A stretch of DNA of 64,000 nt from a virus, in IMG/VR virus record IMGVR_UViG_3300037116_000062, positions 6,120-70,119 of that record; one strand, given 5' to 3'. Below, in pieces: positions 19,658 to 58,906 of the stretch. Both the position numbers and the translations under genes were made by a program. Under the pieces are notes generated by a model. The model saw only the letters and a program-made list of their open reading frames with translations. It had not been told where the DNA came from and searched no databases. How positions within the stretch are numbered: position 1 is the first letter of the stretch; every line of letters begins with the position of its first letter.

Positions 19658-20848
19658 ATGGCATCACCTAACCCAACCACAGGCCTGGGCGTAGCGACGA
19701 ACGTAGTTCTCACGGGCACGGGCGTAGTTCGCACAGTCCCCAAAGTCGCGGGCACCCGCGGCGTAAGCGAGTTCTCAGTTTCGATTCCGATCGGCGGCAC
19801 CGTGCAGATCACGGCCCTCCCGTTCGATGACGCGGGCAACGCAGTATCCGTCGGCAATGGCGGGCTGTTGGACGCCCATCTCGGCACCGCTGCGAATTTC
19901 GCCATCCTCGGCGCAAGCGCGGTCACAGGCAGCACTGGTGGCGGATCCACCATTAGCGGCGGAAACCTCGGTATCGCTCCGAACAACTCTTCGTCTGTCA
20001 CGAACTTCCCGCCTTCCGTTCTGGTCGCCCCTGGCGTGGCTCATTACGCTGACGCGGTCGCGACACAGGCGCAGGTAGATTTGGCCGCGGCTATCGTCTA
20101 CTTCCAAGGATTGACCCCGACCCTGTCGGGCCTTGGCAACCTTTCAGTCGGCGGCAACGGTTCGACCGCTGCAACTTACACCGCTGGGAACTATTTCGGC
20201 GCGTCAAGTCTCGACATCCCTACCAGCATCACTCTGGACGCACAGGGCAATCCGAATGCAGTCTTCGTATTCGTGGCGGGCTCGACCATCACGCTGGAAA
20301 GCGGCGCATCGGTCATTCTCGCGAACGGAGCATTGGCCAGCAACGTCTATTGGGTGAACGGATCATCCTTCACTTCAGTCGACGGCGGCGTCTCTGCTAT
20401 GGTCGGAACGATCATGGCGCACACGTCTATCACGCTGGGTGGCGGAACCCTTTCGGGTCGCGCACTCGCGAACGTGGGCGCGGTTACCTTGAGCACGACC
20501 GAGGTTATCACGGTCCCTCCGACGGGCGTCACCCCCGGAGTTGGATACACAAACGCAGTGACCTTCGCCAGCGCACCGATCAGTGTCCCCGCGTGGTACA
20601 GGCCGAGTGCACAGGGCAAGAATTATCCTGGCGCATACATGGCTCCCGCAGTCGTGGACGACAACGACGCGAACCCGTGGACGGTTCGCGGGCGCAGCGC
20701 AGGCCAGACGGTTATTGACTTCCAGATCCCGACCTTCGGGAATACGGAAGGTCAGAGTTTGGTGGACGTGAACGCAGTCATGGACGAAACGTTCATCGAC
20801 ACTATTTACGCTTCTCTGCTCGTGACGGTCACAGGCGGCACAAGCTAA
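19658..20848 (+). CDS. Ig-like decoration protein with an inserted DUF3494 ice-binding domain
   Basis: LGTAANFAILGASAVT, AQVDL, ITLDAQGNPNAVFVF, VILANGALASNVYWV and GRALA; the flanks align with ORF 29757. Confidence 0.85.
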   Translation: MASPNPTTGLGVATNVVLTGTGVVRTVPKVAGTRGVSEFSVSIPIGGTVQITALPFDDAGNAVSVGNGGLLDAHLGTAANFAILGASAVTGSTGGGSTISGGNLGIAPNNSSSVTNFPPSVLVAPGVAHYADAVATQAQVDLAAAIVYFQGLTPTLSGLGNLSVGGNGSTAATYTAGNYFGASSLDIPTSITLDAQGNPNAVFVFVAGSTITLESGASVILANGALASNVYWVNGSSFTSVDGGVSAMVGTIMAHTSITLGGGTLSGRALANVGAVTLSTTEVITVPPTGVTPGVGYTNAVTFASAPISVPAWYRPSAQGKNYPGAYMAPAVVDDNDANPWTVRGRSAGQTVIDFQIPTFGNTEGQSLVDVNAVMDETFIDTIYASLLVTVTGGTS

Positions 20849-20860
20849 ACGGAGGCAACC

Positions 20861-21376
20861 GTGTACAAGTCCGTCTTTACTAAGATCATCGACGGCTTGT
20901 ATTTGGGTGACAAGGAAGGCTTACCTGAAGCAGAGCGGCGGGGATATTCAGTTCTCGCCGCCTGCAAAGATGGCTCACCCGATTGTCACCGCGCGGTCCT
21001 CGGCTACACAGAACTGGGCGCGCCCAAGGGCAAGAACTATTACTTCGTACAGCGTGGCGACCACATGGCGCTGAACCTTATTGACGCGGAGACTGCAGAC
21101 TTCATCCCCGATGAAGCGATTGACGCAGGATTGGACTTTCTTAAACAAGAAAGAGATGCAGGGAAGAAAGTTTTCGTCCACTGCATCGCGGGCCACTCCC
21201 GCTCAGTAGGTATAATGATGCTTTTTCTCAGAGCCATTGGGGAACTGCCTGAAGGATTTCATAGGGCGTTGCACAAGTTCACCGTTCTCTATCCAGAAGC
21301 GGATATGGGAAAAGGAATGTACCAACACGTCCGCCGTCGTTGGGCGGATATGAAAGACAAGTTTCTGTCGGCTTAA
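20861..21376 (+). CDS. Dual-specificity protein phosphatase
   Basis: IIDGLYLGD and the VFVHCIAGHSRS (HCX5R) P-loop. Confidence 0.9.
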   Translation: MYKSVFTKIIDGLYLGDKEGLPEAERRGYSVLAACKDGSPDCHRAVLGYTELGAPKGKNYYFVQRGDHMALNLIDAETADFIPDEAIDAGLDFLKQERDAGKKVFVHCIAGHSRSVGIMMLFLRAIGELPEGFHRALHKFTVLYPEADMGKGMYQHVRRRWADMKDKFLSA

Positions 21377-21434
21377 TTACCCGATGGAGGGCGAGGCTAG
21401 TCCCTCGCCCAACTCTAGACTAGGAGAGATTATG
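21366..21434 (+). promoter_or_regulatory. Hairpin + RBS-pairing pseudoknot leader (copy 1)
   Basis: TGTCGG-CTTAATTAC-CCGATG, then GGGCGAGG-[CTAGTC]-CCTCGCCC; the loop is complementary to GACTAG at the RBS. Confidence 0.65.
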
Positions 21435-21896
21435 CCTTACAAAACCAAAGAAGAAAAAGCTGCGTATGACCATGCCCGAGTAGCACAAAATCGAGAAGAA
21501 AAATCTGCTTATGATAAAAACTATCGTAGCACTCACCGCACGGAAAAAGACGCGTACAGTCGCAAACATCATCTTCAGAAGAACTTCAATCTGTCTTTTC
21601 AAAAATTTTTTGAGATGCTTACTGCACAGGATAATAAATGTGCCCTTTGTAGTGACTTATTCGAAGTAACTCCCGCTATCGACCACGACCATTCGTGTTG
21701 CTCAGGAGTTAAGAGTTGCGGTAAATGTGTCAGGGGATTGCTCTGTCACCGTTGCAATACCGCTCTTGGAAGTTTCAGAGATTCTCCAGAACTTCTTCGC
21801 AAAGCAGCAGATTACATAGAAAGAAAACGAAACGAGAATTTCAATGTCCCCATTTCGCTCGAAAGCACAAGCGGGCTACCTACACAGTCATCCTGA
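21432..21896 (+). mobile_element. Endonuclease VII-family homing endonuclease
   Basis: QDNKCALC, IDHDH and VRGLLCHRCNTALG; AT-rich. Confidence 0.88.
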
Positions 21897-22326
21897 AATC
21901 CTTGGAAAAGAGGGTTTAAAAGAGTGGGACGCTTCGTCAAAAGGTAAGCAATTACCTGAACATGTGAAACAGTACGACCAAGGCGGGGTAGTTTCACCGC
22001 AGAAGGATACCTCAATGACGGGAATATTTGACCAAATTACCAAAGGCGGTGACAAACCGAAAAAAGAAATTAAAGAAATGGTGCATACCAAAAGCCACAA
22101 CGGGAAACACATTGTCACTCATAGACACCATTCGCCCGCGCATCACCCTGACGAAACGCACGTCATGAACGACATGGCGCAGTTGCACAGCCACATGGAC
22201 GCCCACGCTGGTACACCGAACGACGGCGAAGCGGCTCCCGCCGATGGCGCGGCTGCTCCGGCTCCGATGACGGCAGCCCCGTCACCCGCGCCTGCTGGCC
22301 CCGCTGGCCCTGCAATGGGGGCGTAA
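21844..22326 (+). CDS. Hypothetical His-rich protein with a YDQGG motif
   Basis: MSPFRSKAQ N-terminus; His-rich core; P/A-rich tail. Confidence 0.7.
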   Translation: MSPFRSKAQAGYLHSHPEILGKEGLKEWDASSKGKQLPEHVKQYDQGGVVSPQKDTSMTGIFDQITKGGDKPKKEIKEMVHTKSHNGKHIVTHRHHSPAHHPDETHVMNDMAQLHSHMDAHAGTPNDGEAAPADGAAAPAPMTAAPSPAPAGPAGPAMGA

Positions 22327-22327
22327 T

Positions 22328-23023
22328 ATGGGAATCTATGACAAAGTAGTCAACGCCGCGAAGGGTGCTGCCGCCGCAGTGAAAGCGGGCAACTCTGAGA
22401 CGGAAGGTATTGGAAGCGAACTCGCCGAGCGCGCGAAAATGAATCGCCTCGCGATGGGAAAGAGCGACGAAGCAAAGCCTGTCGACAAGGAATCAGTCAG
22501 CCCGACCGCTGGCGGAAACTCCCCCTACGGATCCCGTAAGGGTGAGAAGAAATTGGACACGTCCTATCTGGACAAGCCCACCGCGGTCAAAGCCCCCGTG
22601 TACGACAAGGGCGGCAAGATTATCGGGGGAACCAACATCCCAGCCCGCGTTTATGATAAGGGCGGCAAAGTCGATGTGAATGACGGCAAACACCAAGTCG
22701 CGATTCTCAAGGAAGGCGAACGCGTTCTGACTGAGAAGCAGGACAAAGAGTATCAGAAGACGAAGGGCGAGCACGCCGAGCCCGACGCGGACGACTATGA
22801 CGACGGCGGAAAGGTTCACACGCCTGAAGAGAAAAACCACTTCGCCCGCTCTATGAACCATCTGAACGCAGGTGGGTTGCACCGTCACCTGGGCATTAGT
22901 GAAGACAAGCCGATTCCCCACTCTAAGAAAGTGGAAGCGTCAAAATCTGACAACCCACACGTTGCTGCGATGGGACGCCTTGCGGTTGCGATGTCGGGAT
23001 GGAAACACCCCAAAAAGAAATAG
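22328..23023 (+). CDS. Hypothetical protein with three YDxGG motifs
   Basis: YDKGG twice and YDDGG; AILKEGERVLT; GGLHRHLG module. Confidence 0.7.
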   Translation: MGIYDKVVNAAKGAAAAVKAGNSETEGIGSELAERAKMNRLAMGKSDEAKPVDKESVSPTAGGNSPYGSRKGEKKLDTSYLDKPTAVKAPVYDKGGKIIGGTNIPARVYDKGGKVDVNDGKHQVAILKEGERVLTEKQDKEYQKTKGEHAEPDADDYDDGGKVHTPEEKNHFARSMNHLNAGGLHRHLGISEDKPIPHSKKVEASKSDNPHVAAMGRLAVAMSGWKHPKKK

Positions 23024-23034
23024 TCGGAGGATCT

Positions 23035-25026
23035 GTGAACGTAAACGAACTGGTAGGCTTAGTCCAGAAACACAAGAACGACAAAAACTACCAGTTCCGA
23101 GACTGGTCGTGGGAGCAGATTGACGCTGCCGCAAAGACCAGTTTCGATCGAATCACACCCGATCAGAAAATCCAAGTCATGAAGGTCTGTGCAGCCTATG
23201 GGCTCACGGACTCGAAGCAGATCGTCCGCTTCCGATTCATGGCGCAAACAAACCTTTTCTTTCTCTGCAAGCTGCTGGGGACTTACAAGGACGTCTCGGA
23301 CAAAGAGTATGTCTGGACGGATGGCAAGGTTCACAATACGCATGAGGAAATTTGCAATTCTTTTTTCGTAGAAAAGAACCCGACGTTCCCCTCATTCAAA
23401 GAGTTCGCGGCCCAGTACATCGATAAGAAAGAGCGTCTTCTGCTCGTACCCCGCGGCGGCTACAAGTCGTCGATGGATATGGCGGATTGCGCCCAGTGGG
23501 TGATCAACTTCCCCGAAGTGACTATCCTCGTACTCTGCGGAGTCCTCGCCCTGGCGAATGACTTCGTCGGCGAAATCAAGGGACACTTCACGTTAGAGCA
23601 AGGCGGGTCCGCGGGGCTGTTTGGTAAAACCCCTCTGCGCCCGAGAACGATGCACAGTGGTACTGGATCCATGTTTCAAGTCCTGTTCCCAGAGCACTGC
23701 ATCGCGCCTGACACAGGCAAGAGTGATGAATATCAGACCCCAGCCGTCGCTGTCCGAGAGAAGGAAGGCACTGTATCTGCTGCCTCTATCGAACAGAGTC
23801 TGACAGGCTGGCACGTGTGCGTTCTGAAACTGGATGACGTTGTCACCAACGAAAACTCCCAGACTGTTGACCGCATGCGGAACATCAACAAGCAAGTCAG
23901 CATCAACCAAGCCATGTTGCACCCGTACGGATTTTACGACAAGATCGGAACGTGGTACGACACTGAAGATACTTACGGTCAAGACATCAAGAGTTCCAAG
24001 AAGTACGCCGAAGACGGCGAAGACTTCCCGATGAAGATCTACATCCGTGCCGCGTGGTGGGCAACGGAAGACGCGATCAAGCAAGGTAAGATCGCGGACG
24101 AGATGGTTGAGACGGATTACAACTATTGGTTCAACGATCCGACCAACGCATCCTCGCTGACGTTCAAGTTCCTCAACCACAAGCGGAAGACCGATCCGTG
24201 GTACGCGATTAAGTACCTCAACGATCCGACGCAGATGCATGTGATCAAGTTCCCGCGAGAACTCCTCGTGCGGCGCACTATCAACGCGGTCGAACTCCCC
24301 AGCACAGGGATGATCGTCTCCTGCGTTGACACGGCCTACTCGACCAAGACTTGGGCGGATTACACGGTCATCATCACCTCGCTGATTTACGGCGGGCGCT
24401 TCTACATCATTGACATGAAGCGTGGGCGATACAACGAATACGAACTCCCCGCAATGATTGCAGCGACGGCCCAGCAATGGAAGCCGAAGCGAATCTGCAT
24501 CGAAGAAACTGGAGCGATCAAGTACATCCAGCGGGAAGTCTATCGTGAGATGGACAAACTGAAGGTGCGGGTTCCAATCGAACTCGTCCCCCTCGGTCAA
24601 GGCAGCAAGGCCACTTCGAAGAAAACGAAAGCAGGCCCCGTCCTCAGGTTCCTGGGAGACGACAGGCTGCGGTTCATCAACACCTGCCCGTTTCTAGAAG
24701 ACCTGTACGACGAACTCTCCAAGTTCGGTACGGCGGCAAGCACCCACGACGATATCGTGGATGCTCTGTCCATCCTCATAAATCAGTTCTCATCCTACGC
24801 TGACATCGAAGGAAAGATGACGGCGTCCGGCGCGGGGTTTACCTCCGACCAGAAGATGCAGAACGCGCACAATCTGATGCACTGCGACGGTAAGTACGGG
24901 AAACTGAATCAGCGGAACGACGTTCAACTGGAGTTCCCCGACCAATCACCGCAGTCCCTATCAAGAGACGCGGCATTAGATGCGTATGAGGCATCCCAAG
25001 ATCCATTGGGCGAACTTTTTGGTTAA
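23035..25026 (+). CDS. terL: Terminase large subunit
   Basis: LLLVPRGGYKSS Walker A, VLKLDDVV Walker B, VDTA..ADYT and HDDIVDA nuclease motifs; GTG start with GGAGG. Confidence 0.9.
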   Translation: MNVNELVGLVQKHKNDKNYQFRDWSWEQIDAAAKTSFDRITPDQKIQVMKVCAAYGLTDSKQIVRFRFMAQTNLFFLCKLLGTYKDVSDKEYVWTDGKVHNTHEEICNSFFVEKNPTFPSFKEFAAQYIDKKERLLLVPRGGYKSSMDMADCAQWVINFPEVTILVLCGVLALANDFVGEIKGHFTLEQGGSAGLFGKTPLRPRTMHSGTGSMFQVLFPEHCIAPDTGKSDEYQTPAVAVREKEGTVSAASIEQSLTGWHVCVLKLDDVVTNENSQTVDRMRNINKQVSINQAMLHPYGFYDKIGTWYDTEDTYGQDIKSSKKYAEDGEDFPMKIYIRAAWWATEDAIKQGKIADEMVETDYNYWFNDPTNASSLTFKFLNHKRKTDPWYAIKYLNDPTQMHVIKFPRELLVRRTINAVELPSTGMIVSCVDTAYSTKTWADYTVIITSLIYGGRFYIIDMKRGRYNEYELPAMIAATAQQWKPKRICIEETGAIKYIQREVYREMDKLKVRVPIELVPLGQGSKATSKKTKAGPVLRFLGDDRLRFINTCPFLEDLYDELSKFGTAASTHDDIVDALSILINQFSSYADIEGKMTASGAGFTSDQKMQNAHNLMHCDGKYGKLNQRNDVQLEFPDQSPQSLSRDAALDAYEASQDPLGELFG

Positions 25027-25035
25027 GGGAGTGAT

Positions 25036-27165
25036 ATGGATGACGCTTTGATTGTATCTGACGGCAATGCCGATCAACACCTGACGACCGATAGCGTCAA
25101 CAAAGACGGCATGATGAAGACGGTCGACCTAGACCTGTCCCTCGTCGTGCAGTCCGCGAGGATGTCCAAAGCGTTCATTTCGAACAAGCAATGGACACTC
25201 CTGTGGCGCGACGCTGACCTACTGTTCCAATCACCCCGACCGATGTCGACGTACGAAAATACGTACGTCCTTGAACCCAACGTTCAGCGGTTCACGGTCG
25301 CGAAGGTCTGCAACGCGGTAGTTCCGCAACTTTACAAGGGTCTGTTCTACGATGACCCACCGATGTTACTCCGCCCGCGTCCTGGCACAAGTCAGAAGAC
25401 GATCGACGCGAAGACAGCGATGTTCTCGTTCGTCCTCGACCAATGCGACTTCAAGAACCACGTCAAGTGGGGCTTGGAACAGATGGCCCACCAGGGAACG
25501 GGAATTTTCAAGTGGGGTTACGACTGGAAAGAGATTACCACTATCAAGCGCAAGGCGACTACGATCAAGGTAGAAGCCCCGCAGCCTGATGGGACCACAG
25601 ACACTATTCACATCCCGAGTGACGAATCGCCGAGTATTACAGAAACGAGCAAGGTTCTACCCTTGCCGTTCTTCGAGTGGCGGCCCTTGGACAAAGTCCT
25701 TGTCGACTCGCAACTGGCGGTCAGCGATATCCGCATGGCGCGCTGGGTGATCGACGTCCGATACATGGACTGGTATCAGCTTAGTGACATCAAGAAGGCG
25801 ATCGACGACGCGCGCGAAGCTGGTGAGACAGGCGCGGCAATCGAAGGATGGGACTTCCCAGACGACGCTGCCCTCAAGGCGATGTGGGATCGGCCATTCA
25901 ACGGCACGACCAATGAGGTGACGCAAGCCTCCTACATGGAAGGCATCATCCATCACAGCGAGAAGGAAAATCAGGACACCAGTCCCGACCCTCTCCGCCG
26001 CAAGATGGAAGTCCTCGAATACTGGGACAAGGGACGAAAGATCCTGGCCCTGAACGAAGAGAAAGTAATCTTCCGCGGCAAGAACGAATTCAAACGAATC
26101 CCGTTCCTGAGTGCGAACTGGTGGAACCGACCCCGTGCATTTTACGGCATGGGACTTGGGCTCATCGTGGGACAGAATCAACGCGTCGACCAAGGCACCA
26201 TTAACGCCATTCTTAAGATTCTGTCGTATGGCGTCAACCCTATCTATCTCCGCAATCGATCGGAGAACGCACCAACTCAGACCATCCGCACCAACCTCGG
26301 CAAGATCATGTCGGTGACGGATGTGAAAGAATCATACGCCCTACTTGAGCAACCCAAAGTCCCCTCGGACATCTGGGGAGCGATCAAGGAAAGCGAATCG
26401 GCCACCGAGTCTTCCTCGGGCGCAGACCAAACGCTCGTACAGGGCAGTTCGGCTGGACCCCGTGCAGGTATGGGACGCTCCGCTACAGGCGCAAACCTGA
26501 TGGCTGGCGCGTCCGCAACCCGACTGGACGGCCCGCTCGATAACTTCATCGAGCAGGTGTTCAAGCCGTGGTTGAGCATCATTGACATGCTCGTGTTCAA
26601 CTTCATGTCGGATGCCGCCATCCTCCACGTCCTGGGCAAGGAAATGGGTACGGAGTTCCTAACGGACGCCGACAGCCCGTTCCAGATCCAAGACTACCAC
26701 GATGCTCAGATCGAGTACGAAGTGCTTGCTGGATCCTCACTCGCTGCAAAGCGGACGATGGCCCAGAGCATGGTCATGCTCACCCAGATCCTCGACAACC
26801 CGAACATCCAGTCAATGCTGGCCGAAGCGGGCAAGAAGATCAACATCGAAGCAATCATCTCGATGTGGCTCGAAGCAAGCGAATGGAAGAACAAGAACGA
26901 CATCGTTGTTCCGATGTCCCCCGCGGACATCCAGAAGCGGGATGCGAACTCAAAAGCCGCACTCCAGCAGCAACAGATGCAAATGAAACAGCAAGGCGAC
27001 CAAGCAAAGTTCGCCGAGAAACAACAGTTGGAAGACCAAGCAAGTGACAACCGTATTAAGCGCGACATCACCCGAGAAGCAGCGAAGGCATCTTCGCTGA
27101 GTCAGACGGTTGAAGGCGTGCCGAGTACGGGTGGCTTGCAAGGTCAGATGCCGACTGTTGAGTAA
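25036..27165 (+). CDS. Portal protein
   Basis: 709 aa directly after terL; GTGIFKWG, FYGMG, RSATG and a Q-rich C-terminal barrel. Confidence 0.88.
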   Translation: MDDALIVSDGNADQHLTTDSVNKDGMMKTVDLDLSLVVQSARMSKAFISNKQWTLLWRDADLLFQSPRPMSTYENTYVLEPNVQRFTVAKVCNAVVPQLYKGLFYDDPPMLLRPRPGTSQKTIDAKTAMFSFVLDQCDFKNHVKWGLEQMAHQGTGIFKWGYDWKEITTIKRKATTIKVEAPQPDGTTDTIHIPSDESPSITETSKVLPLPFFEWRPLDKVLVDSQLAVSDIRMARWVIDVRYMDWYQLSDIKKAIDDAREAGETGAAIEGWDFPDDAALKAMWDRPFNGTTNEVTQASYMEGIIHHSEKENQDTSPDPLRRKMEVLEYWDKGRKILALNEEKVIFRGKNEFKRIPFLSANWWNRPRAFYGMGLGLIVGQNQRVDQGTINAILKILSYGVNPIYLRNRSENAPTQTIRTNLGKIMSVTDVKESYALLEQPKVPSDIWGAIKESESATESSSGADQTLVQGSSAGPRAGMGRSATGANLMAGASATRLDGPLDNFIEQVFKPWLSIIDMLVFNFMSDAAILHVLGKEMGTEFLTDADSPFQIQDYHDAQIEYEVLAGSSLAAKRTMAQSMVMLTQILDNPNIQSMLAEAGKKINIEAIISMWLEASEWKNKNDIVVPMSPADIQKRDANSKAALQQQQMQMKQQGDQAKFAEKQQLEDQASDNRIKRDITREAAKASSLSQTVEGVPSTGGLQGQMPTVE

Positions 27166-29756: not shown

Positions 29757-30299
29757 ATGGCTAATCCTTCTCCCCAACCCACCCCCACGAGCGGCGTGGG
29801 CACTGCAGCGTACGTCCAAGTTAGCGGAACGAACGTCGGCAACTGCTCACAGCCAGTCGCAGGGACAGGGCAGGGCACGGGCGCGATTCCTTCCACGAAT
29901 CACCCTGTTGCGCAGTACGCACTCACGTTGAGTCTGGCAGCTAAGACCATCAACGGGGTCGCGTATGCTGCCACCTGCCAGTTGACCACGACCATTAAGG
30001 ACGTGGCAGGCACGACTTTCACGGGCACCAATAGCCCTGTGTACAAGTCGTATGCGGATCCAGTCGGCGCTTGGTACAACCCGAGCAACGTTCCCGCCCC
30101 CGCGGGCGCGCCCGCATACAGCGGTCTGATCGCTTCCGTCAGCGGCAGCGGTTTGATCACTGGTTTGCACGTTGGCCAGTGCATCGTTGAAGTGCAGTAC
30201 TCGACTTTCGACGATGTGCAGAACCCCGCGACCAACACGGGAACGGGCAATCCGTGGGCGATGATCTATGCACAGATCGTCGTCAACGTTGTGCCCTGA
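29757..30299 (+). CDS. Ig-like (Big_2-type) capsid decoration protein
   Basis: IASVSGSGLITGLHVGQCIV; directly after the capsid gene. Confidence 0.65.
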   Translation: MANPSPQPTPTSGVGTAAYVQVSGTNVGNCSQPVAGTGQGTGAIPSTNHPVAQYALTLSLAAKTINGVAYAATCQLTTTIKDVAGTTFTGTNSPVYKSYADPVGAWYNPSNVPAPAGAPAYSGLIASVSGSGLITGLHVGQCIVEVQYSTFDDVQNPATNTGTGNPWAMIYAQIVVNVVP

Positions 30300-30314
30300 G
30301 CACCAATTCGACAT

Positions 30315-30392
30315 CTTCGGACTAATTACCCGAAGCCAGAGCGACCAGCACCTAGAATGCTGGTCGCTCGCTCTTTTCTAGGAGAGAATATG
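30315..30392 (+). promoter_or_regulatory. Hairpin + RBS-pairing pseudoknot leader (copy 2)
   Basis: CTTCGG-ACTAATTAC-CCGAAG, then a 12-bp stem whose loop CCTAGAA is complementary to TTCTAGG at the RBS. Confidence 0.7.
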
Positions 30393-30809
30393 CCCCGAAA
30401 CACTGAAGCAGGAAGGCTCGCGTACAACAAATACATGCGAGAATATCGAAAGCGCCCCGAACAAGCCGCTAAAGAAACCGCACGAAAAGCGGCTTGGATA
30501 GCGGCAAACCCAGAGAACGCGGAGAAACACCGTTTGAGCAGGTTTCGCGCCGCGAGAAGGGCCAGATGGGGTAACCCAGAAGAGTACGCCGCACGTCTCG
30601 CTAAACAGAATGGTTTGTGTGCGCTCTGTGGCGAACCTTTTGACGACACTAAGTTAGGCAGCCCTGTTCAAGATCACGACCACGATACTGAAGAACTAAG
30701 AGAATTTTTGCACTGCCGTTGTAACCTTGCGATAGCAAATCTGCTGGATAGCCCTAGCGGATGTCGCAAAGCAGCGGAGTATTTAGAGAAGCACGGGAGG
30801 AGAGGATGA
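30390..30809 (+). mobile_element. Endonuclease VII-family homing endonuclease
   Basis: QNGLCALCG, QDHDH and REFLHCRCNLAI. Confidence 0.85.
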
Positions 30810-30907
30810 AAGATACGAAGGCAGTAGTCAGAACTGTGTGCTCCATCGTGTCCGTCATTCTGCAGTCGATCGGGCTTTGGTTCATCATCACGCATACAGC
30901 AAAGTAA
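30806..30907 (+). CDS. 33-aa single-TM microprotein (not in the ORF track)
   Basis: MKDTKAVVRTVCSIVSVILQSIGLWFIITHTAK; GGAGG RBS; ATGA overlap. Confidence 0.5.
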   Translation: MKDTKAVVRTVCSIVSVILQSIGLWFIITHTAK

Positions 30908-30922
30908 CACCAAGGAGGACAC

Positions 30923-32972: not shown

Positions 32973-34040
32973 ATGGGCAACTCCAGCTACCGACTTCAGG
33001 ATCTCGTAGATATAGCAAGATCGCTAGGCGATCTCGCACCCACACTCCCTACAGGCGGAGCATATGAAACCGTCGCCACCTCGGCGGCCAATGACGTCAT
33101 GACTAGCATGGTCGCGGGGAGCAGCAAGGGTTCCCCGTTCAATTTCAAGTGGAACCGCGTCATCATCCCGCCGTTCTTCATCAACTCGTGGCAGCAAGAT
33201 TACGCTTCCTCAGTTGTGAACCTCGGCTGGCTCGAATCGTGCGGCGCGTACAACACGTCCACCACTCAGACACCGAAGCCCTATCGCGTGGTTGAAGTGA
33301 AGCGGGACGTCCTGATTACGAACGCCCAGACTGCGTCCACCGCGAAGATCCAGTGGGAGCAGAACAACTCGCTCACATTCGGAACGTGGGGACAGTCTAC
33401 CCCCAACAGCATTACGGGGATCCCAAACCCTGGCCCGGGCGCGGTGTACCAGAACCCGCTGGGCATGATTTCTCTTCCCTCCAACCCGATCACTCAGGTG
33501 AAAGACGCCTTCGGCAACCTGTGGATCGTGACAGGCTACGGAACCTGCGGCGGAGTCAACCCTTTTCTCACGAATCTCAATCCCGTATTCCCCGACATCA
33601 ACAATCCGACCACCGTCGCGACGACAGCCGCGGACGGGGGTGTCACTTGGACCGCGGTCAACCCGTTCGGACAGGGATTCCGTCTCAACCCGATGCCATC
33701 TCAGACAGGCCCCGTGTGGGAAGTCTGCCCCGTTGGCCAAGCCAAGATCGCGAAGTTCACATCCCTCGGTCAGTATCTTGAGCCGATCCCAGATGACTAC
33801 TTCACGTATTTTCAGAACGGGTTCTTCGCCCAGTGCTATCGTCGATCGCCCGATCCGAAAGTAAGATCCAAGTTCAAAGACGAGTGGGCGATTTTCATGA
33901 AGTCGCTCGATGAGTGTGTCGACCAAGCAAGTAGAGAACAGGACGACTGGGGATTCGTCCCGACCTATAACGTGATGGACACGGGCTGGGCGTTTAACCC
34001 AGTCAACCCCGCAATGCCTTATGGGCCCTGGGCGGGCTAA
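32973..34040 (+). CDS. Putative head-tail adaptor protein
   Basis: AANDVM...FNFKWNR...QQDY...PIPDDY pattern; position. Confidence 0.6.
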   Translation: MGNSSYRLQDLVDIARSLGDLAPTLPTGGAYETVATSAANDVMTSMVAGSSKGSPFNFKWNRVIIPPFFINSWQQDYASSVVNLGWLESCGAYNTSTTQTPKPYRVVEVKRDVLITNAQTASTAKIQWEQNNSLTFGTWGQSTPNSITGIPNPGPGAVYQNPLGMISLPSNPITQVKDAFGNLWIVTGYGTCGGVNPFLTNLNPVFPDINNPTTVATTAADGGVTWTAVNPFGQGFRLNPMPSQTGPVWEVCPVGQAKIAKFTSLGQYLEPIPDDYFTYFQNGFFAQCYRRSPDPKVRSKFKDEWAIFMKSLDECVDQASREQDDWGFVPTYNVMDTGWAFNPVNPAMPYGPWAG

Positions 34041-41992: not shown

Positions 41993-42039
41993 TTGACAAT
42001 CTTCTCCTATTGCTGTAAACTTAAGTAATAGGAGAAGAT
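41993..42039 (+). promoter_or_regulatory. sigma70 promoter embedded in an RBS-sequestering hairpin
   Basis: TTGACA-17-TAAACT; ATCTTCTCCTATTGCT pairs with AGTAATAGGAGAAGAT. Confidence 0.75.
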
Positions 42040-42633
42040 ATGGAGAACAATCATCCACGATTCCGCCTTCAAGGGCGGGAGCAAGAGGTTATCGCCGCCT
42101 ATCAAGGCGGCAGTTCAACTCCAACGATAGGGAAACTCTTTGGGGTAAGCCACGCTTCCATTCTGCAGGTGTTGAGGAAATTCAACGTCCCTCGACGCAC
42201 GCGAAGTGAAGCCAACATACAAACGCATTGCAAGAGGGGACACCCAATGGTGGAGGGCAACCTCTACTACATGAAGGGCGGGGTACGGAGTTGTTTGACT
42301 TGTCGCAAGGCAAATGGCAGACGTAGTCGATTTGGACTACGGCCTGAGGATATCGAAAGACGACTTCAGCAGCAGGAAGGGAAATGTGCTGTTTGTAGAA
42401 AGACTTTGAAAATCCCCCAAGCAGACCACGATCATTCCTGTTGTCCTGCGAAAACTAAAACTTGTGGAAAGTGTGTGCGAGATTTGTTGTGCAGGAACTG
42501 CAACCTCGCTGTCGGGAACGTGAAGGACGATATCTCAATAGCAGAATCCCTCGTCGCTTACCTGAAGAAATGGAAAACCCCCAATGTCCACCCTAGCAGA
42601 ACGACTGAAAACGCAATCGCTGCCGGGGTTTGA
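42040..42633 (+). mobile_element. Endonuclease VII-family homing endonuclease with an N-terminal HTH
   Basis: HTH (IGKLFGVS), THCKRGH, CAVC, DHDH and CRNCN. Confidence 0.87.
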
Positions 42634-43589: not shown

Positions 43590-43597
43590 GAGGAGTG

Positions 43598-44020
43598 ATG
43601 GGTAGAGATAAAGAACATTGGAACGCTTACATGCGGGAGTTTCGCAAGACCCATCCCAGGACCGCGGAGAAACGCGCGGCTCAAAATGCACGTAATAGCC
43701 GCAACCAACAGAATGAAAAGACAACCCCCGAAGGGCGGCTCAGGGTGAAGAACCGCTACTTTCTTCGGGAGCACGGGATTACCCTAGAGCAGAGAAATGC
43801 CATCATTGTAGAACAGGACAATCTCTGCTTAATTTGTGGGCGTCTTTTAGGAGACGACAACATGGGGGCGCTCTCTCCTGTTGTCGACCACAGCCATCTC
43901 ACAGGCAAACGTCGAGGCATACTACATCGAGTTTGCAATTCCGCCATAGGGTTGCTGGAAGATAGCCCTGATTTGCTCAGGCGTGCTGCTGACTACTTGG
44001 AGAAATCACAGTGTCCATAA
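43598..44020 (+). mobile_element. Endonuclease VII-family homing endonuclease
   Basis: QDNLCLICG and VDHSHLTGKRRGILHRVCN. Confidence 0.87.
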
Positions 44021-56900: not shown

Positions 56901-58517
56901 ATGGCCAAAACTGATGGAACCATGCGCGACAAGATTGTCGCCGCGTTCACCAAGAACCAGGGCAACATCGCCGCCGTATCCCGTGAAGTGGGATGCAGCC
57001 GTAGCTCCGTGCGCCGCAACATCGCCAAGGTCGGCATGGGCAAGAAGCCCCTCGCTGGCGGCAAGCGCAAAGCCAAGATCCAGAAGAACACCGTTCCGAA
57101 CACTGGCGTGAAACGGTATGTCATCACCTCCGCCCAGAACAACACACATATCCATCCCGAGTTTTGGGCGAACGTCCAGGCCCTCGCGAAGCACTACTCT
57201 GCGGAGATCCTCATCGGAACGTACTCCTATAACCAGAACAATTACGGCAAGCTCGCGGTCAAGAAGGGCACGAAGAAATCATACCAGACGGAACTCTGGT
57301 TCGACCCCGCGCTCATGCATTACATCGCAGACGGCGACAGGAAGATCGAACTGGCCCCAGGGCTCACGTGGATCGGCACCATGAATATCCTGCCGACCGA
57401 AGACAACCCGATCTCGGGGTTGGAGACGTACGGCGGTTCGTCCAGTGTGATCTTCCCACACGCTAAAGTGGAGATGCGCAGCATCGCAACCCCGCCCGAC
57501 ATGCCTGTCAAAATGATCTACACGACGGGTAGCGTCACGCTCATGAATTACCTGCAGAAGAAACTGGGCATCAAAGCCGAGCACCATCATCGCTACTCCT
57601 GCCTCGTCGTTGAAGTCAACGCGAAGGGAGAGTGGTGGGTTCGCCAAGTGAGCGCGCGCAAGAACGGGCTGAACATCCAAGACTTGAATGTCATTGTAGA
57701 CAGTGGCAAGGTCATCTCCACGGACGCGCCAATCGCGGCAATCGCGTGGGGCGACCTGCACGGGACTATCGCAGACCTGACGGTTGTTGAGTCATCGCAG
57801 AAGATGCTGGATACGTTGCGCCCCAGGGTGCAGTACCTCCATGATGTCATGGAAGGCATCTCCATGAACCCGCACATGCGGAAGCATAATGCGATCCATG
57901 AGGGTTTCACGCGCTGGCTACGCGGCCTGAATAGGGTTGAGGAAGAGTTCAAACAGACTCGCGTAGTTCTTGAGAAGTACCTTCGCCCTTGGATAAAGAC
58001 CGTCGTTCCCGATGCGAACCACGACAGGGCTTGGCTGGTGAAGTGGCTCCGCGATTACGACTATCGCAAGGACGCTTCCAATAGTGAGTTCTTCTTGGCT
58101 CTGCAGAAGTTCATGTATAGCGAACTTCGTGATGGCAAGATGGCTAAGAACGTCAACCTGATGGAGTTTGCATTCCAAGCAGTTGGGCTCCCGAAGGGCG
58201 CAGTTAAATTCTTGCTTCCAGACGAATCGTCTCTAGTGGGCGATGTCGCATATGACATGCACGGGCACCTGGGGCCGAATGGAACGTTTGGCGCGCCGAA
58301 CAACCTGTCCAAGATTGGCAGGAAGGCGACCACTATGCACACGCATTCTGCGGGGATTTACCACGGCCTGTTTGTGGGCGGCACGTCTTCCAAACTGACA
58401 CAAGGTTGGGACTACTGTGCGGGGCCTAGTTCTTGGTCATGGAGCCATGTCATACAGTATGGAAACGGGCAACGCAGCATTGTGACTATGGGAGGGGATG
58501 GGAAGTGGAGAGCCTAA
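56901..58517 (+). CDS. HTH + metallophosphoesterase (T5 A1-like)
   Basis: N-terminal HTH; YVITSAQNNT; GDLH, LHD, ANHD, HGH and HTHS calcineurin-like motifs. Confidence 0.75.
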   Translation: MAKTDGTMRDKIVAAFTKNQGNIAAVSREVGCSRSSVRRNIAKVGMGKKPLAGGKRKAKIQKNTVPNTGVKRYVITSAQNNTHIHPEFWANVQALAKHYSAEILIGTYSYNQNNYGKLAVKKGTKKSYQTELWFDPALMHYIADGDRKIELAPGLTWIGTMNILPTEDNPISGLETYGGSSSVIFPHAKVEMRSIATPPDMPVKMIYTTGSVTLMNYLQKKLGIKAEHHHRYSCLVVEVNAKGEWWVRQVSARKNGLNIQDLNVIVDSGKVISTDAPIAAIAWGDLHGTIADLTVVESSQKMLDTLRPRVQYLHDVMEGISMNPHMRKHNAIHEGFTRWLRGLNRVEEEFKQTRVVLEKYLRPWIKTVVPDANHDRAWLVKWLRDYDYRKDASNSEFFLALQKFMYSELRDGKMAKNVNLMEFAFQAVGLPKGAVKFLLPDESSLVGDVAYDMHGHLGPNGTFGAPNNLSKIGRKATTMHTHSAGIYHGLFVGGTSSKLTQGWDYCAGPSSWSWSHVIQYGNGQRSIVTMGGDGKWRA

Positions 58518-58906
58518 CATTCAAGTGTGGACACCCTAGAGACGAACGGAATTCGATGCCCCGTACTCGGCTAGGAACGGAAGGCATGTGTTGTCGAACG
58601 TGCAAGGCCGCAAGCAACTTGAAATGGCGTAGGGCTCACCCCGAGTGGCAAGTCGAAGAGAACCGTAAAGTAAAAAAGTTACGGGTAGAATCTTTGATGG
58701 AAACACAAAAGGGGCTATGTGCCATCTGCGAGCGAAGGATGAATTACCCCTATGAGGATCATAGACACTCTTGTTGCCCAGCAGGCGGTGGGTGCGTTAA
58801 GTGCAGGAGAGGCCTTCTGTGCCCCAGTTGCAATGGGGGACTTCATTTGATCGAAGACGAGCGGCTACACGAAGCCGCGAATGCGTATTTGAAGTTTTGG
58901 GAGTAG
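58505..58906 (+). mobile_element. Endonuclease VII-family homing endonuclease
   Basis: KCGH, QKGLCAIC, EDHRH and RGLLCPSCN; GTG start inferred. Confidence 0.82.

Follow-up and report, generated by a model that had tools for sequence, protein, structure and literature searches.

Free-standing homing endonucleases must be expressed strongly enough to spread, and not so strongly as to harm the phage that carries them; to our knowledge, almost nothing is known outside T4 about how this balance is set. A 64-kb stretch of viral DNA (bases 6120–70119 of the 70-kb IMG/VR record IMGVR_UViG_3300037116_000062; hereafter the window) raises the question at two places, in front of the nuclease genes HEG1 and HEG2, where the same two-hairpin leader recurs (Table 1). 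What is this leader, does it move with the nuclease genes, and what would it do to their expression? The leader is a real, well-supported structured element and a new variant of ribosome-binding site (RBS)-occluding control in phage nuclease cassettes. With moderate confidence, we read it as a cis-acting attenuator of translation in front of promoter-less homing-endonuclease cassettes in a clade of peat and soil phages.

Architecture and covariation of the leader

Both leaders consist of a first hairpin (HP1) with the loop NN-UAAUUAC, a G+C-rich second hairpin (HP2), and the string CTAGGAGAGAWTATGCC. The HP1 stem comprises 6–8 pairs ending GG/CC around a 9-nt loop. An earlier annotation made from the letters alone (the sequence-only reading) had described a 6-bp HP1 followed by a linker of 2–3 nt; the pair count holds for copy 2 and fails for copy 1, which has eight pairs including two G-U, and the copy 1 linker is 0–1 nt. 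Its G+C-rich HP2 stems of unrelated sequence, 8 bp in copy 1 and 12 bp in copy 2, were found as described. The TAA stop codon (21374–21376) of the upstream open reading frame (ORF) at 20861–21376 falls inside the HP1 loop of copy 1, whose Shine–Dalgarno (SD) sequence, AGGAG at 21422–21426, begins with the last two bases of the target and is followed by the ATG at 21432. Directly 3′ of HP2 in copy 2 lies GCUCUUUUCU, and this hairpin was therefore also flagged as terminator-like.

Table 1. Leader elements and the nuclease genes that they precede (window coordinates).
Feature	Position	Strand	Description and basis
Copy 1 HP1	21364–21388	+	8 pairs incl. two G-U; 9-nt loop CTTAATTAC (RNA CUUAAUUAC); sequence and fold
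Copy 1 HP2	21389–21410	+	arms GGGCGAGG/CCTCGCCC (RNA 3′ arm CCUCGCCC); 6-nt loop CUAGUC at 21397–21402; fold and covariation
Copy 1 spacer	21411–21417	+	AACUCUA; CUCU can pair with SD-region AGAG as HP3 5′ arm; MFE folds
Copy 1 target	21418–21423	+	GACUAG, exact complement of HP2 loop; duplex energy −6.0 kcal/mol
HEG1	21432–21896	+	154 aa, endonuclease VII (His-Me finger) type; Pfam PF02945, E = 2.4e-19
Copy 2 HP1	30315–30335	+	CUUCGG/CCGAAG, 6 pairs, loop ACTAATTAC (RNA ACUAAUUAC); fold and model match
Copy 2 HP2	30339–30369	+	12 pairs, loop CCUAGAA at 30351–30357
Copy 2 3′ module	30370–30389	+	spacer GCUCUU; target UUCUAGG at 30376–30382; SD AGGAG at 30380–30384; ATG at 30390
HEG2	30390–30809	+	139 aa, endonuclease VII type; PF02945, E = 1.7e-11

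The window contains exactly two matches to the HP1 17-mer pattern and two to CTAGGAGAGAWTATGCC, all with 0 mismatches, and only 0.14 matches for CTAGGAGAGAWTATGCC would be expected there even allowing 3 mismatches. A third TAATTACCCGA in the 70-kb record lies outside the window, on the minus strand, inside an ORF and without a hairpin. The two-hairpin parts fold better than 200 of 200 shuffles (z = −3.8 and −6.4), and a covariance model (R1) built from eight leaders, with copy 2 left out, finds copy 2 at 38.7 bits (E = 1.7e-7), in agreement with the earlier claim that both sites share one architecture. Because the HEG1 and HEG2 proteins are only 28% identical, the leader is better conserved than its proteins.

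Covarying homologs, the check proposed with the sequence-only reading, were found: 20 leaders were collected, and 15 leaders were aligned to the model. Across the 15 aligned leaders, 98.0% of cells pair compared with 77.3% in shuffles, a value reached by none of 500 shuffles, and slid controls pair at ≤ 51%. Changes on both sides affect 11 of the 14 pairs of HP1 and HP2, and the pair types include G-U and U-G on the sense strand, for which no pairing is possible on the opposite strand. These compensatory changes support the proposal of a structure-conserved, sense-strand RNA before homing-endonuclease genes.

The pairing of the HP2 loop with its target is the strongest feature of the leader. 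The loop is 6–7 nt long and begins with CU or CC; 12 distinct loops occur in the 20 leaders, and each is reverse-complementary to a segment of its own leader that immediately precedes the SD. This complement between a loop and its own target averages 6.65 nt, compared with 3.43 nt for 132 cross pairs (four of which reach 6 nt), and a mean as high arose in 0 of 20 000 permutations; the initial set of 10 leaders behaved in the same way. Compensatory pairing with the RBS region, which the sequence-only reading had seen in two copies, thus extends to 12 loop types. Among the initial 10 leaders, the target stops 7–10 nt short of the ATG; in most members its final bases extend into the SD. Some loop–target addresses also appear more than once (CUGAUAC four times and each of four others twice), combined with different stems and placed before different ORFs, so that leader and cargo are shuffled independently of each other, a point of relevance to the evolution of such cassettes.

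The bases between HP2 and the start codon can form a further helix. Minimum-free-energy (MFE) folds pair the SD in a local hairpin (HP3) directly upstream of the nuclease ORF in eight of ten core members (both window copies, L041, L099, L209, L225, L245, and L228). Its arms vary among CUCU/AGAG (both window copies), UUCUC/GAGAA, AUCU/AGAU, UUCUUC/GAAGAA, ACCUUU/AAAGGU, and UUUUCU/AGAAAA; the copy 2 fold pairs CUCUUU with GGAGAG. HP3 stems have a mean of 5.0 pairs when spacer and SD come from the same leader and of 3.96 in cross pairs, and again none of 20 000 permutations reaches the former value. The three helices exist as conserved potential, and HP1, HP2, the loop–target pair, and the spacer–SD pair all covary.

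The spacer is best read as an anti-SD sequence, whose pairing with the SD purines turns the target into the loop of HP3. On this model, the pseudoknot of the sequence-only reading is best read as a kiss between the HP2 and HP3 loops: the loop–target pairing it postulated stands, and its topology is better fitted by a loop–loop contact with a small SD-sequestering hairpin. An H-type pseudoknot without HP3 was set aside as sterically awkward, the whole 6–7-nt loop being complementary, a difficulty that a kiss between two 6–7-nt loops removes. The leader would thus represent a compact, covarying RNA design in which an SD hairpin is locked by a loop–loop contact, recurring with many loop sequences.

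Several other readings of these letters were rejected. As a promoter, HP1 fails in that TAATTA and its neighbours lack a −11 A and the motif occurs at only two intergenic sites of the window, and the recurring upstream AAGAAATAA is the end of the upstream gene. Neither HP1 nor the spacer could be read as an NtcA-box, boxA, or 16S complement, since by eye these were not conserved across members. No sigma-70-like site was seen on the + strand of either leader, judged by the sigma-70 consensus, which may not be that of this phage. In-frame upstream ATGs within the leaders (21384 and 30357, +) would extend the nuclease ORFs to 170 and 150 aa; neither has an SD, and homologues begin at the SD-proximal ATG.

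Insertion sites and relatives of the leader

The leader and a nuclease gene occur together at no fewer than four different intergenic sites in relatives of the phage, and at two of these sites the leader comes and goes with the nuclease gene. Site 1, which follows a phosphatase-like gene, holds the cassette in the window (copy 1) and in the related loci L127 and L228, and is empty in L099, where the flanking genes overlap. Site 2, which directly precedes the terminase gene, is filled in L041, L099, L209, and L245 and empty in L228 and in the window, which has an 11-nt gap with the terminase SD only. Since the empty alleles at both sites are without a leader, the leader came in with the nuclease gene there. 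HP1 starts 0–9 nt past the upstream stop codon in the filled alleles of sites 1 and 2, and lies at the 5′ edge of the cassette, 0–15 nt past the stop codon of the upstream phage gene.

At site 3, the place of copy 2, L228 carries a relative of HEG2 (55% identity across 73 aligned residues) behind a leader that keeps the loop–target pair of copy 2 and differs from it in the HP1 loop and the HP2 stem letters. HEG2 is absent from this site in L121, which is syntenic with the window and has a solo leader (L121:6754–6870) composed of HP1, an HP2 with loop ACCUAGAAC (the same loop core), and then a strong terminator; this precedes a gene for a 33-aa membrane protein homologous to window 30807–30908. 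A second two-hairpin element in L121 (9690–9772), with another HP1 loop, stands before the homologue of window 32973–34040. L059 has HP1 alone.

Leader-like elements also precede other genes in L306 and in L221/L308, namely a ParB-methylase gene and a gene without a Pfam match. The elements before the ParB-methylase gene (L221:965–1076 and L308:195–302) hold CUCCUGCG in the HP2 loop, and the complement CGCAGGAG is present twice, once as the SD and once looped out by an 8-pair A-U hairpin. Of 16 leader-linked proteins compared with Pfam, twelve match PF02945 and four (L466, L478, L481, and L374) match no family; the element is not restricted to PF02945 genes, as the leader-like elements before other genes also show.

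The HP1 pattern was found in at least 118 IMG/VR stretches. The matches listed give 82 distinct contexts, which split into two real groups (A and B) and chance matches such as sigma-70 promoters. Group B, which has the window's architecture, was enlarged by further patterns, protein homology, and R1, and nearly all of its contigs are syntenic relatives of the window phage. A pattern scan of genome contigs gave 120 matches, nearly all due to chance, with one clear member (L374, a 59.9-kb contig binned with a Bacteroidetes metagenome-assembled genome) and one variant (L418). An HP1-free pattern, ACCGCCCAATTCTN{6,9}GGAG, was tried as a test of loop constancy and discarded, as its 14 stretches comprised seven from two known leader groups and seven without hairpins.

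Searching from the proteins showed how narrowly the leader is distributed. Among 80 loci encoding HEG1 relatives, only the closest (L127, 73% identity) has the leader, and among 15 HEG2 relatives the closest (L321, 47%) has the same design with another HP1 loop. A scan of these 95 loci for a G+C hairpin with a loop complementary to the pre-SD segment returned L127 and L321 only (2/95), and the same scan with a control target returned zero loci. Within the 70-kb record, PF02945 has five matches, and two of these genes are preceded by the leader while the other three are without it. That the leader travels with a homing-endonuclease lineage is therefore borne out by the empty alleles, and limited by its absence from most related loci and from three of the phage's own PF02945 genes.

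Two side observations come from the same collections. The leader of L472 is identical to that of L041, but an internal deletion joining MPY to DHACC... has shortened the nuclease ORF of L472 to 53 aa; this is a decaying cassette with an intact leader. Seven IMG/VR stretches (L034, L045, L046, L101, L114, L119, and L126) carry a different conserved element, TCGGAGTAATTACCCGAAAAGTAA ... GGTGGGGTAAGAGTCCC, whose layout is unrelated to the nuclease leader and which in L046 and L119 lies just before an apparent tRNA gene (judged by eye).

Group A contains, among the matches listed, 43 distinct sequences from phages with hardly any genes in common with the window. Their HP1, identical to that of the window leaders, is embedded in a three-way junction (CUAG, HP1, GAAAAG, hairpin region, CCUG, closing stem), and the Rfam motif int-alpA (RF02996) matched two of the five group A loci searched below its gathering threshold (34.4 and 26.6 bits vs 35.8). 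HP1 occupies the P2 position in the group A leaders that resemble int-alpA. Among the matches listed, 19 of the 37 group A leaders with a first target carry a second target copy at the RBS. In the window leaders and the int-alpA-like leaders alike, the loop of the second hairpin is complementary to a stretch that follows a U/C-rich spacer, and in both this pairing covaries.

Group B is nonetheless not a member of the int-alpA family, although it is related in design, because it lacks an Rfam match, the P1 stem, and the junction letters. int-alpA has a closing stem P1 at a three-way junction and the letters CUAG, CGAAAAG, and CCUG, whereas the window leaders are without these and have no predicted enclosing stem; in the window leaders, unlike int-alpA, the target abuts the SD and a third hairpin closes it. 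Rfam searches with int-alpA gave no match at E ≤ 10 for 21300–21500 or 30250–30450 and none in the whole 70-kb record, none in L127, L225, L221, or L321 (E ≤ 5), and none in L041 or L022 (E ≤ 1). Permissive Rfam searches of both leaders and six related loci returned nothing relevant, and literature searches on the loop letters, or on kissing with homing endonuclease and Shine–Dalgarno, found no description of this element. The earlier statement that the leader is not a described motif therefore holds insofar as no Rfam family matches, and is qualified by the identical HP1 at P2 of sub-threshold int-alpA-like leaders. Rfam lists int-alpA as a small RNA gene without a known role, and the main text of PMC5737381, reportedly its source, has zero mentions of the motif; the nuclease leader offers a functional lead for it.

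Probable attenuation of nuclease translation and its alternatives

As an attenuator, the leader would act through two contacts that together hold the RBS closed. The pyrimidine spacer would pair with the SD purines to form HP3, and the HP3 loop, the exact complement of the HP2 loop, would kiss it in a helix that also covers the first two SD bases. The nuclease would then be translated weakly from read-through late mRNA, the net effect being repression by analogy with the cases below. The position of HP1 would keep a ribosome terminating upstream from opening HP2, and HP1 may accordingly be a buffer, or else a site for a factor; buffering leaves the conserved UAAUUAC loop unexplained, and the loop itself is not constant.

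Three lines of evidence led us to this reading: energies, another gene of the same phage, and T4. The kiss is predicted at −6.0 kcal/mol in copy 1 and −7.6 kcal/mol in copy 2 and HP3 at −2.8 and −4.3 kcal/mol, compared with −7.3 kcal/mol for the SD with the anti-SD in both copies; without the kiss, SD bases are unpaired at 11–46% (copy 1) and 4–44% (copy 2). Before the PF02945 gene at 42040–42633, a 16-pair hairpin (41994–42037, +; −25 kcal/mol, z = −7) closes the SD, and TTGACA-17-TAAACT lies inside its 5′ arm and loop, so that a transcript started at this promoter-like site would be without the inhibitory arm. By analogy, this is the classical T4-type arrangement. In T4, RBS occlusion is the control documented for I-TevI/II/III and segB, and likewise for Aeh1 mobE, in the parts of PMC2988022 that treat these genes.

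The likeness to those systems is one of principle and not of construction. According to the same parts of PMC2988022, the T4-type nuclease cassettes are promoter-less or late, lie in polycistronic mRNA and have the SD closed, as proposed here. The T4 hairpins are single, long and relieved by a late promoter inside the hairpin. The window leader instead has a short SD hairpin reinforced by contact with a separate G+C-rich hairpin, HP1 upstream, and no evident internal promoter. A further parallel is seg43(25) of Aeromonas phage 25, for which the relevant section of PMC2988022 describes a very stable hairpin that directly precedes, and does not include, the RBS of a free-standing nuclease gene; HP2 is similarly placed, and that section describes no loop–RBS pairing or extra hairpins.

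A number of observations weigh against attenuation or soften it. Repression may be mild, given that HP3 is short (3–7 pairs) and that the kiss helix leaves most of the SD uncovered. A parallel in layout, repZ of IncI-alpha plasmids, likewise has a hairpin loop pairing with a segment immediately 5′ of the RBS, and a translated ORF upstream. An antisense RNA blocks that pseudoknot, whereas no antisense partner was seen for the window leader. According to PMC9977716, translation of repZ needs the pseudoknot, so that a pseudoknot beside an RBS need not repress. Most members were collected with DNA patterns containing TAATTACCC, often GGGCG, and the constancy of these letters is partly built in by the search. 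Likewise, the 15-leader alignment was fitted to the model structure, which favours structure, and the permutation tests take no account of relatedness between members. L121, L059, L306, and L221/L308 show that the element is not strictly tied to nucleases. One metatranscriptome (X20, contigs only) covers relatives of the capsid-like gene and neither leader; it is unusable as evidence, as are an X20 contig in which 29966 is followed by 30913, one side of the junction being just 23 letters long, and X7, X10, and X11, in which no cover was seen over 30042–30775.

If the contact opened the RBS, the leader would be a translational activator or context insulator, its loop–target helix presenting the SD and giving the same RBS geometry at any insertion site. 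The GGAG core just 3′ of the kiss helix would suit such a role, as would cassettes working at four or more intergenic sites and the repZ precedent; an upstream stop 0–15 nt before HP1 fits too, as a terminating ribosome would open HP1 and not HP2. The spacer argues otherwise, being complementary to the SD purines and covarying with them, as predicted by an SD-closing hairpin and not by an SD-presenting platform, and the nested ensemble has the SD bases paired for the most part. We consider activation unlikely.

Repression could also be conditional, with a protein, ligand, or RNA acting on the UAAUUAC loop of HP1, or a decoy competing with the RBS for the HP2 loop. That the same 17-nt HP1 recurs in the int-alpA-like leaders of unrelated phages speaks for a switch, and so do their second, RBS-proximal target copies and the duplicated target of L221 and L308 (hairpin loop and SD). 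The window copies and other core members, in contrast, have one full target site only, the conserved int-alpA-like junction letters (CUAG, GAAAAG, and CCUG) are absent from the window leaders, and no complementary GUAAUUA occurs elsewhere in the window. Three leaders were found without UAAUUAC as a search key, and two of them have another loop (L321 and L228:11125–11215; L127 has UAAUUAC). The protein- or ligand-operated switch through this loop that the sequence-only reading had envisaged is not supported by that comparison, nothing else pointing to it, and a switch of any kind appears distinctly unlikely.

HP1 and HP2 might instead belong to the phage backbone, as a terminator or an RNA-processing or stabilizing element beside which nuclease genes land and adapt their RBS region. 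The solo leader of L121 with its strong terminator, the lone HP1 of L059, and the terminator-like score of copy 2 are what such a history would leave behind. It is hard to reconcile with the empty alleles at sites 1 and 2, which contain neither HP1 nor HP2, or with R1, which finds no further copies in other intergenic regions of the window; moreover, in most members HP2 is followed by AAUUCUC-like bases and not by a U-tract. We regard a backbone origin as improbable.

A broader and similarly improbable proposal would make the leader a stripped-down member of a cross-phage int-alpA "anti-RBS loop" superfamily, in which the UAAUUAC hairpin docks a conserved host or phage factor, the loop–target pair is re-addressable, and addresses prevent cross-talk and allow silencing in trans. 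If true, the 12 addresses would keep several cassettes in one genome from cross-talking, and leader RNA, including solo leaders left after nuclease loss, would silence an incoming nuclease mRNA of the same address, an RNA-based immunity against homing.

Taken alone, a trans-acting role of this kind, for which phage P1 c4 is the model, would have a released HP2 act as an antisense or immunity RNA that binds a matching nuclease mRNA of another genome at its RBS region. Discrete addresses do recur behind different stems and before different ORFs, and L121 has a solo leader without a nuclease gene; yet loop and target always lie in cis, 15–25 nt apart, and the idea is pure inference, which makes it very improbable. 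Least credible is a DNA-level signal (nuclease recognition site, cruciform, or operator): TAATTA is palindromic and endonuclease VII-type enzymes cut branched DNA, but sense-strand G-U and U-G pairs are A-C mismatches on the other strand, the loop–target and HP2 repeats interleave, the former at a position tied to that of the SD, and a sequence absent from the empty alleles cannot be the homing target.

Other features of the window

The window also encodes a large terminase (22999–25026) and an SU10-type portal (25036–27165). Two further PF02945 genes (43595–44020 and 58433–58906, +) are without a leader; one of them begins directly after the upstream stop, behind GGAGG, and may be translationally coupled, and the other overlaps the end of a 538-aa upstream ORF. 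A blastn search of window 20800–22400 against the GenBank phage collection gave no match, and a sequencing-run search found the stretch in peat metagenomes.

ARAGORN detected no transfer-messenger RNA (tmRNA) or tRNA in the window. The sole whole-window Rfam match at the gathering threshold is to permuted tmRNA (RF04321; 118–293, −), at 53.2 bits and above threshold, which may represent a phage-borne or attachment-site fragment.

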